A program made the position numbers and the translations under genes. Below the pieces are notes generated by a model. That model was given only the letters and a program-made list of their open reading frames with translations, was not told where the DNA came from and did no database searches. Source: Eledone cirrhosa (taxonomy: Eukaryota). Taken from it: DNA of 64,000 nt. Below, one piece after another: positions 12,256 to 13,664 of the stretch (position 1 is its first letter; every line of letters begins with the position of its first letter). The DNA lies in assembly GCA_964016885.1 (NCBI GenBank), contig OZ024743.1, forward strand, positions 293,756,001 to 293,820,000, read 5' to 3'.

Positions 12256-12472
12256 TATAAATTAATATGTATGTGATGAAACACAGATACCAACACATCT
12301 GTATATATATTGCAAAAGAAAAATTTAGCCAGATTGAAGTATACTAATTATTATACTACAGTTTGTCCATATCGATTTAAAATAATAAATCAACGGAGAC
12401 CAACTGTATTGCCAAGAGGCCGTGATGTTTAGACACATTTAAATTTCAAAATCAAACCTGTTCCGTAGATAA

Positions 12473-12548
12473 GTTTAGACTTTAAGATCCAAATATGTTT
12501 CGAGTTAAATAAGTGTAGGAATATCATGTCCCGCTCTCCTCAGTAAAC
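12473..12548 (-). ncRNA. Type I hammerhead ribozyme, copy 1
   Basis: The minus strand reads GTTTA-CTGAGGA-GAG...CTC-GAAA-C ATATTTGGATCTTAAA G-TC-TAAAC. All core nucleotides are present, stem I is 5 bp, and the cleavage triplet is GUC. Confidence 0.85.
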
Positions 12549-12990
12549 ATCCAGAGACAAATTGATATGCTTCACTTCTAAATAATTTAAAAGACTGAGT
12601 GACGCACATGGCTTTACAGTATCTAACTAGTCTCATAACTGTACTGCTAGAAATAACAGTCGTATATATGAGGCGGCTTGCAGCTCAAACTAGGAGCAGT
12701 TAAAATTAATAAGGTAATGAATTCTTTTACAATGGAATCAGCTCGAAGGATGAAAAATACCCCCTGAGCAGTGTATAAATTAATATGTATGTGATGAAAC
12801 ACAGATACCAACACATCTGTATATATATTGCAAAAGAAAAATTTAGCCAGATTGAAGTATACTAATTATTATACTACAGTTTGTCCATATCGTTTTAAAA
12901 TAATAAATCAACGGAGACGAACTGTATTGCCAAGAGGCCGTGATGTTTAGACACATTTAAATTTCAAAATCAAACCTGTTCCGTAGATAA

Positions 12991-13067
12991 GTTTAGACTT
13001 TAAGATCCAAATATGTTTCGAGTTAAATAAGTGTAGGAATATCAAGTCACCGCTCTCCTCAGTAAAC
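12991..13067 (-). ncRNA. Type I hammerhead ribozyme, copy 2
   Basis: The same motif in the next unit, with core and stems identical. Confidence 0.85.
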
Positions 13068-13664
13068 ATCCAGAGACAAATTGATATGCTTCACTTCTAA
13101 ATAATTTACAAGACTGCGTGGCGCACATGGCTTTACAGTATCTAACTAGTCTCATAACTGTACTGCTAGAAATAACAGTCGTATATATGAGGCGGCTTGC
13201 AGCTCAAACTAGGAGCAGTTAAAATTAATAAGGTAATGAATTCTTTTACAATGGAATCAGCTCGAAGGAGGAAAAATACCCCCTGAGCAGTGTATAAATT
13301 AATATGTATATGATGAAACACAGATACCAACACATGTGTCTAAACATCACGGCCTCTTGGCAATACAGTTCGTCTCCGTTGATTTATTATTTTAAATCGA
13401 TATGGACAAACTGTAGTATAATAATTAGTATACTTCAATCTGGCTAAATTTTTCTTTTGCAATATATATACAGATGTGTTGGTATCTGTGTTTCATCACA
13501 TACATATTAATTTATACACTGCTCAGGGGGTATTTTTCCTCCTTCGAGCTGATTCCATTGTAAAAGAATTCATTACCTTATATATATATATACATATATA
13601 TATTAGAAAATGAGATTTTTTTTACAAATTGAAAAATAACCGAGGTGTCCTACACGAGTGACGG

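Follow-up and report, generated by a model that had tools for sequence, protein, structure and literature searches.

The window, i.e. the whole stretch of 64,000 nucleotides under analysis, contains a tandem array of a 518-nt unit that is joined head-to-head to an inverted piece of the same unit and is enclosed by (TA)n. When positions are numbered along the unit (minus strand, u1 = 12995), the order of the parts is (TA)n / inverted u287-40 / u173-518, u1-518, u1-222 / (TA)n. The features of this locus, together with a neighbouring coding PLE, are as follows:

3533..6877, plus strand: coding PLE-A, with a 5'-truncated RT/GIY-YIG frame at 4526-6349 and an inverted arm at 3533-4527
11425..12259, no strand: (TA)n-rich microsatellite, left target half
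12256..13342, minus strand: main arm, 2.1 head-to-tail units, 5'-truncated at u173 and with its 3' end at site A (u222)
12705..12773, minus strand: internal copy of the 69-nt 'tail' (u223-291), between two fixed 3'-end sites
13334..13342, no strand: head-to-head junction, 9-bp overlap (microhomology)
13334..13581, plus strand: second (inverted) arm, u40-287, ending at site B
13582..13604, no strand: right target half, (TA)n

The original prediction of ~2.1 head-to-tail units of 518/519 bp is borne out by a direct repeat with this period (12263-12823 versus 12781-13342; 562 bp, 98.0% identity), and the inverted segment that it placed at 13334-13580 by an inverted match of 246 bp (13579-13334 versus 12711-12956; 99.2% identity). 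The inverted arm carries the tail (about 13517-13581) and extends 65 nt beyond the array end, in good agreement with the ~64 bp claimed. However, it does not cross the unit junction as had been proposed, and halts at u40. Both ends of the insertion lie inside (TA)n, which masks any target-site duplication, and Pol III A/B boxes were not found in the unit sequence. When the unit was compared with the masked window by BLAST at word size 7, no similarity was found outside the locus, including to the neighbouring PLE at 3533-6877 and to a 305-nt unit from which it had been claimed to be distinct. A partial tandem of this 305-bp repeat ends at (TA)n at window 21851-22286, and next to a nine-unit array elsewhere in the genome (L033) lies a stretch that resembles it, with a period of 501 bp; the 305-bp repeat looks like the pLTR of another family. 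The window also contains a broken Gypsy-type LTR element (53105-57108) with 425-bp LTRs (52255-52679, 57733-58157) and a mariner-like inverted fragment (44635-45555).

Each full unit had been assigned a complete minus-strand hammerhead ribozyme. Two CUGAGGA...GAAA cores are indeed present on the minus strand of the locus, but the pairing proposed for them does not hold, and the features are revised as follows:

12942..13070, minus strand: type I hammerhead 1, from fold and covariation; predicted cut after GUC at 12950
12424..12551, minus strand: type I hammerhead 2, from fold and covariation; predicted cut after 12432
12432..12949, minus strand: corrected predicted monomer, 518 nt

The motif GUC-UAAAC occurs twice per unit, 46 nt apart, and the original prediction used the nearer copy. 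The supported helix I, GAUGUUUA/UAAACAUC, lies 46 nt downstream of that pairing and has a pair probability of 0.83-1.0, versus 0.0 for GUUUA/UAAAC at 12996 and 12478. The predicted structure of hammerhead 1 comprises an 8-bp helix I, a 3-bp helix II with a large loop, and a helix III of ~29 bp, in which the nearer GUC-UAAAC site is buried. This fold is the minimum-energy fold, its helix I has a probability of about 0.7 in the circular monomer, and the unit folds somewhat more stably than shuffled sequences (z -2.45 for the linear and -2.6 for the circular unit). In the alignment of three subfamilies described below, family 3 has AGUGCUUG instead of GAUGUUUA as its 5' arm; of the two sites, the farther one alone shows a matching change, UAAACAUC to CAAGCACU. 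Across 22 distinct rows, 95.7% of cells are paired in the corrected fold. Two-sided changes affect four of the eight helix I pairs, all at the split of family 3 from families 1-2, and these count as one lineage split rather than four independent lineages; compared with shuffles, the cell-count measures of covariation are better and the pair-count measure is not. The nearer helix I pairing, with no two-sided changes and breaks in 7 rows, was rejected. The monomer at 12478-12995 is accordingly replaced by 12949 to 12432, likewise of 518 nt. Position N7 of the core varies between G and A, and Rfam gave no hammerhead match at the gathering score. By this structural model, the unit contains a type I hammerhead core (CUGANGA, GAAA, UH) with three helices and an open helix I, and self-cutting is predicted at 12950/12432. 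Preservation of the core, the GUC and helix I across 30% divergence suggests function.

The locus belongs to a dispersed family in a host genome of 3.0 Gb. An exact 29-mer has 451 genome matches and an exact 33-mer from helix III has 1,176, with none for the controls; a DNA search in which 39 of 1,113 candidates were scored gave 164 matches, the full-length ones being 96-100% identical. A second subfamily (~510 nt) is 85-92% identical and a third (family 3, ~546 nt) about 70% identical, and all three are tandem, non-coding and ORF-less. Units differ by 0.96% within one array and by 2.66% among loci (82 loci; the comparisons are not independent). Arrays of 5-9 units are present, the longest pure array having 9. 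The corrected monomer has a longest stop-free frame of 72 codons and, when circularised, a longest Met ORF of 43 codons, which agrees with its description as non-coding, and no RT/GIY-YIG ORF is found within the 518-nt element. This is a non-coding hammerhead retrozyme family with hundreds of young genomic copies and, as far as its sequence can tell, it has the features of a metazoan non-LTR retrozyme.

Dozens of loci, spread over many contigs, have the same tandem/inverted layout. This recurrence and the 451 and 1,176 exact matches versus none in controls mean that the layout is neither chance nor an assembly artefact, a concern raised with the original prediction. An assembly artefact or plain satellite DNA is hardly credible: (TA)n flanks and tandem repeats are difficult to assemble, but stereotyped ends with variable junctions occur at >100 dispersed loci, and contigs from a different public run set contain the unit at high depth (three contig sets from one sample, none of which spans the locus). 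The copies might also be 5'-truncated pseudo-LTRs of an autonomous, unsampled PLE. Coding PLEs have a matching layout of tail and inversion, and 24 of 57 Xenopus retrozyme families are homologous to known TEs, nearly all of them PLE termini, in the available text of Li 2026 (10.64898/2026.07.22.740005). A PLE ORF match is present in 29 of 207 fetched stretches (some overlapping one place), yet none of the 207 has a PLE ORF in line upstream without intervening (TA)n, which speaks against all copies being ordinary pseudo-LTRs of an RT ORF. The sample is limited to these 207 stretches; given also the pure arrays of up to 9 units, the resumption of the unit after the tail where an ORF start would be expected, and the ORF-less state of all three subfamilies, a pseudo-LTR origin is very improbable.

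The 3' ends of the copies are fixed at two sites, site A (u217-226) and site B (u279-296). Among 118 family-1 loci, a set that mixes best matches with a position-ordered sample, the main arm ends at A in 64, at B in 49 and elsewhere in 5, so that 113 of 118 end at ~222 or ~291. The circularly permuted starts that had been anticipated are thus not seen. The 3' end is adjacent to (TA)n in 79 of 82 loci. An inverted arm is present in 71 of the 118 loci, and in these the ends of the two arms are A then B (35), B then A (21), A/A (1), B/B (0) or include a non-standard end (14). Hence, where both arms end at standard sites, the ends are opposite in 56 of 57 loci, i.e. the tail is present once. In the position-ordered set alone (52 loci), the ends are opposite in 19, the same in 1 and otherwise in 7. 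The same rule is seen in subfamily 2 (10 of 14 opposite and 4 non-standard, after removal of duplicate fetches) and in family 3, in which the end sites are 229/314 (13 of 14 opposite). The sole A/A locus, L246, has equal arms of 345 nt, 54 bp apart, and possibly arose by another route. Junctions between arms overlap by 2-20 nt in 25 of 45 cases. Twin priming of the L1 type was considered and rejected; the 5' end of the main arm is variable and does not match the start of the inverted arm.

Coding PLEs of this genome follow the same rule. PLE-A reaches further left than the 3576 given for it in the original prediction, with a tail of ~47 nt (3533-3579) at one end only. One end at A and one at B is the arrangement in all five PLE-A loci with both ends visible and in seven of seven PLE-B loci, and one further PLE-B locus extends past both sites. 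The sequence after the tail is the resumed unit in the retrozyme and the ORF start in PLE-A and PLE-B, in which, on our reading of the frame, the tail itself appears to be the start of the ORF. In its tail, the unit shows weak similarity to PLE-A and PLE-B (four tests, uncorrected; shuffle p 0.15, 0.62, 0.012 and 0.77), and a short query search with the PLE-B 3' end gave no matches. The protein of the window PLE has its closest named relative in Octopus vulgaris (67%), and PLE-C and PLE-A proteins are about 25% identical. By motif reading, PLE-A, PLE-B and PLE-C have a C-terminal GIY-YIG and cysteine linkers like those given for Neptune/Nematis in the available text of Craig 2021 (PMC8557442).

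Other PLE remnants accompany these elements. An inverted PLE-C 3' end with a tail and a minimal hammerhead-like motif (window 6925-7245) is nested in the (TA)n after PLE-A; in PLE-B (L033:1800-1870, minus strand), a minimal hammerhead has a helix III of 1 bp, and one additional base follows its CUGAAGA. A core resembling it is present in PLE-A at window 6634-6662, but helix I is not clear there. At window 3019-3509, 32654-32793 and 14463-14920 lie a pair of head-to-head palindromes, each between tracts of (TA)n, and an old sequence related to the PLE-A 3' UTR; these are probably further two-armed PLE remnants.

The overshoot of the inverted arm had been taken as a sign of a circular template. 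A PLE tail of 30-40 bp, often at one end only, is described in the available text of Craig 2021 (PMC8557442), and in that of Frangieh 2024 (PMC11167929) the RT of a PLE starts in vitro at two internal sites that bound the tail, both target strands being extended. These descriptions and the identical rule in coding PLEs indicate that the overshoot is a PLE tail. Since such a Penelope tail is also present in the coding PLE at 3533-6877, the overshoot alone gives no proof of a circle.

The two arms of a locus share a haplotype. Each inverted arm was set against the main arm of its locus at 44 informative sites, which gave 78 mismatches in 1,815 comparisons, versus 263 expected from other loci (82 loci; the comparisons are not independent). 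A shared haplotype would also be expected from two RNAs of one source locus. It is likewise compatible with inverted arms that formed without second priming, either from one cDNA that folded back or primed itself or through rearrangement of the DNA; self-priming has been proposed in the available text of Arkhipova 2013 (PMC3846280), and the junctions of L213, L235, L248 and L292 are symmetric palindromes. However, a fold-back copy cannot exceed the copied end by 69 nt, and the longer end is on the inverted arm in 21 of the 56 opposite-ended loci. Fusions of different families would, in addition, require two templates, and fold-back is therefore regarded as improbable.

Such fusions are found at seven loci, at which the retrozyme is joined head-to-head to an inverted piece of another family with microhomology of 1-7 nt and with the far end at (TA)n. 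In L033 the array of 9 units is joined to 1.35 kb of PLE-B (4-nt microhomology), in L220 the partner is 1.86 kb of PLE-C (1 nt), and five other fusions involve other repeat families (3-7 nt); the PLE fusions thus involve at least two PLE lineages. Exactly one tail is present in 2 of 6 mixed-family joins, with tail status judged from few copies. The contrast with two-armed loci fits the use of one RNA with two start sites as a rule and of two RNAs in mixed joins. Alternatively, the fusions could be nested insertions with deletion. Among 14 non-(TA) junctions examined, the remaining ones resemble insertions or deletions into unrelated repeats, and L231 has a same-direction join to a PLE 3' end. 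At L047:2747-3133, the partner fused head-to-head to the retrozyme is a repeat of a different family, which carries a hammerhead with a long helix II and has a relative in the window.

The nature of the template was assessed in 71 arms of 52 position-ordered loci behind the first 100 of the 451 pattern matches. Of these arms, 47 reach u60; 3 stop at u35-60 and 44 pass the cut site, 34 crossing one cut site and 10 crossing two. The template was thus not a cleaved linear monomer, and the claim of a multimeric or circular template is supported by this read-through. Enrichment of arms that stop at the hammerhead cut was looked for and rejected, with a stop hazard at u41-60 of 1.06 times the mean, and an apparent stop peak at u1-20 is probably an effect of selection and segmentation. 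At the present locus, the end of the inverted arm (u40-49 within the overlap) is compatible with a stop at the cut. Repeated reading of one RNA is unsupported by A-to-G editing scars: a suggestive excess in 81 loci (9 versus 4, p 0.09) disappeared in 117 loci (9 A>G versus 7 T>C, p 0.32).

A monomeric circle and an uncleaved linear multimer are about equally likely as the template. A linear route would be the same PLE-driven insertion from an uncleaved linear transcript that reads through an existing array. The hammerhead would be slow or blocked, arrays would regrow by unequal exchange or template jumps, and no circle would be involved. In the available text of Frangieh 2024 (PMC11167929), unprocessed RNA is the main substrate of the element PAc and ribozyme mutants insert normally, and in that of Li 2026 (10.64898/2026.07.22.740005) one of nine Xenopus retrozyme dimers is cleaved. 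Arrays of 5-9 units are available as possible sources, 34 of the 44 read-through arms cross one site only, and the long arrays L033, L041 and L059 share variants block-wise. These block or alternating (ABAB) variants, to be expected if units were duplicated locally or if a dimeric circle was copied, point to local duplication after insertion, so that array length is not clean evidence for rolling-circle copying. In contrast, the preservation of the hammerhead core, GUC and helix I across 30% divergence, the many haplotypes (44 informative sites) that each give multi-unit copies, and the circular forms documented for coral, mussel and axolotl retrozymes argue against a purely linear route, which we consider plausible though short of an even chance.

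One position differs from unit to unit:

12535..12535, minus strand: u461, an A in helix II, variable between units within a locus

It differs between units in 10 of 49 loci, versus 0.67 expected (Poisson p 3e-9), with 136 A, 19 G, 16 T and 3 C alleles. The T allele is found on both u464 haplotypes and is therefore recurrent. One reading is that RT misreads a modified base at u461, and another that the position is a DNA hotspot. The base m1A causes misincorporation plus arrest, according to the available text of Hauenschild 2015; no RT-stop peak at u461 is found among the arm ends.

Taken together, an RT/endonuclease of a PLE acting in trans probably primes from both nicked (TA)n strands on one uncleaved RNA, circle or multimer, which gives two end sites ~69 nt apart. 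PLE-driven mobilisation in trans, as originally proposed, is supported by the two-site tail rule, the inverted arms and the PLE fusions. Transcription of an array would come first, and the hammerhead with extended helix III may then cut, as its fold and covariation suggest, allowing circularisation. The PLE protein, presumed by analogy with the enzyme in the available text of Frangieh 2024, would nick both strands of (TA)n, the target seen at these loci. One strand would start at A (u222) and the other at B (u291), probably on the same RNA molecule in view of the end pattern and the shared haplotype. Both cDNAs would extend 5'-ward with variable stops, usually through the hammerhead as seen in the arms, and their ends would be joined head-to-head via the short microhomology present at the junctions. 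A more elaborate reading is tentative and rather unlikely as a whole: a dimeric Penelope RT/endonuclease would bind one 518-nt hammerhead circle at a pair of sites separated by 69 nt and copy round it from both strands of the (TA)n break, could pair retrozyme RNA with coding PLE RNA of different lineages, and would fossilise the misreading of a modified u461 unit by unit.

Metazoan non-LTR retrozymes, in the available text of their descriptions, share with this family non-coding tandem units with low GC and one type I hammerhead each (PMC7229834), and also co-occurrence with PLEs and a proposed mobilisation by them (PMC7229834; 10.64898/2026.07.22.740005). The unit of 518 nt is larger than the 170-400 nt given by Cervera and de la Pena 2020 (PMC7229834) and within the 51-972 bp given by Li, Clavereau and Pollet 2026 (10.64898/2026.07.22.740005), in the parts available; helix III is ~29 bp here versus a reported 1-2 bp in the axolotl retrozyme. 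Two-site ends, head-to-head arms and fusions to coding PLEs are seen here and are absent from the available text of those descriptions (PMC7229834; 10.64898/2026.07.22.740005). Circular RNA is documented for retrozymes elsewhere and is one of the two template forms predicted for the present family. Literature searches on octopus PLE hammerheads, on head-to-head non-autonomous PLEs with circular RNA and on type I hammerheads with extended stem III, mostly among papers outside subscription, gave no description of the family.

With EN+ PLEs, the family shares 5' truncation, an inverted 5' copy, an optional tail at one end, microsatellite targets and internal RT start at two sites, as given in the available text of PMC8557442, PMC3846280 and PMC11167929, from which it differs in having no ORF and a full-size rather than minimal hammerhead. 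Its tail is 69-85 nt, versus 30-40 nt in published PLEs, as far as their descriptions are available, and 40-60 nt in PLEs of this genome. In the available text of Craig 2021 (PMC8557442), the 3' ends of non-autonomous Chlamys PLEs (e.g., MRC1) are similar to those of their helpers, and hammerheads are missing from most Chlamys; the similarity of the retrozyme to candidate helpers is weak at best. Mobilisation of animal retrozymes by PLEs has so far been proposed, in the available descriptions, from co-occurrence and pLTR similarity rather than shown at the insertion level. The insertion-level footprints found here, namely the two-site PLE tail, with one site used by each arm, and direct fusions to coding PLE pieces, are unusually direct footprints of PLE copying. 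A defined RNA, for which two start sites are predicted and the cut site has been corrected, suits the existing in vitro PLE assay. Whether the template is circular or linear, and how PLE inversions originate, thereby become directly testable.
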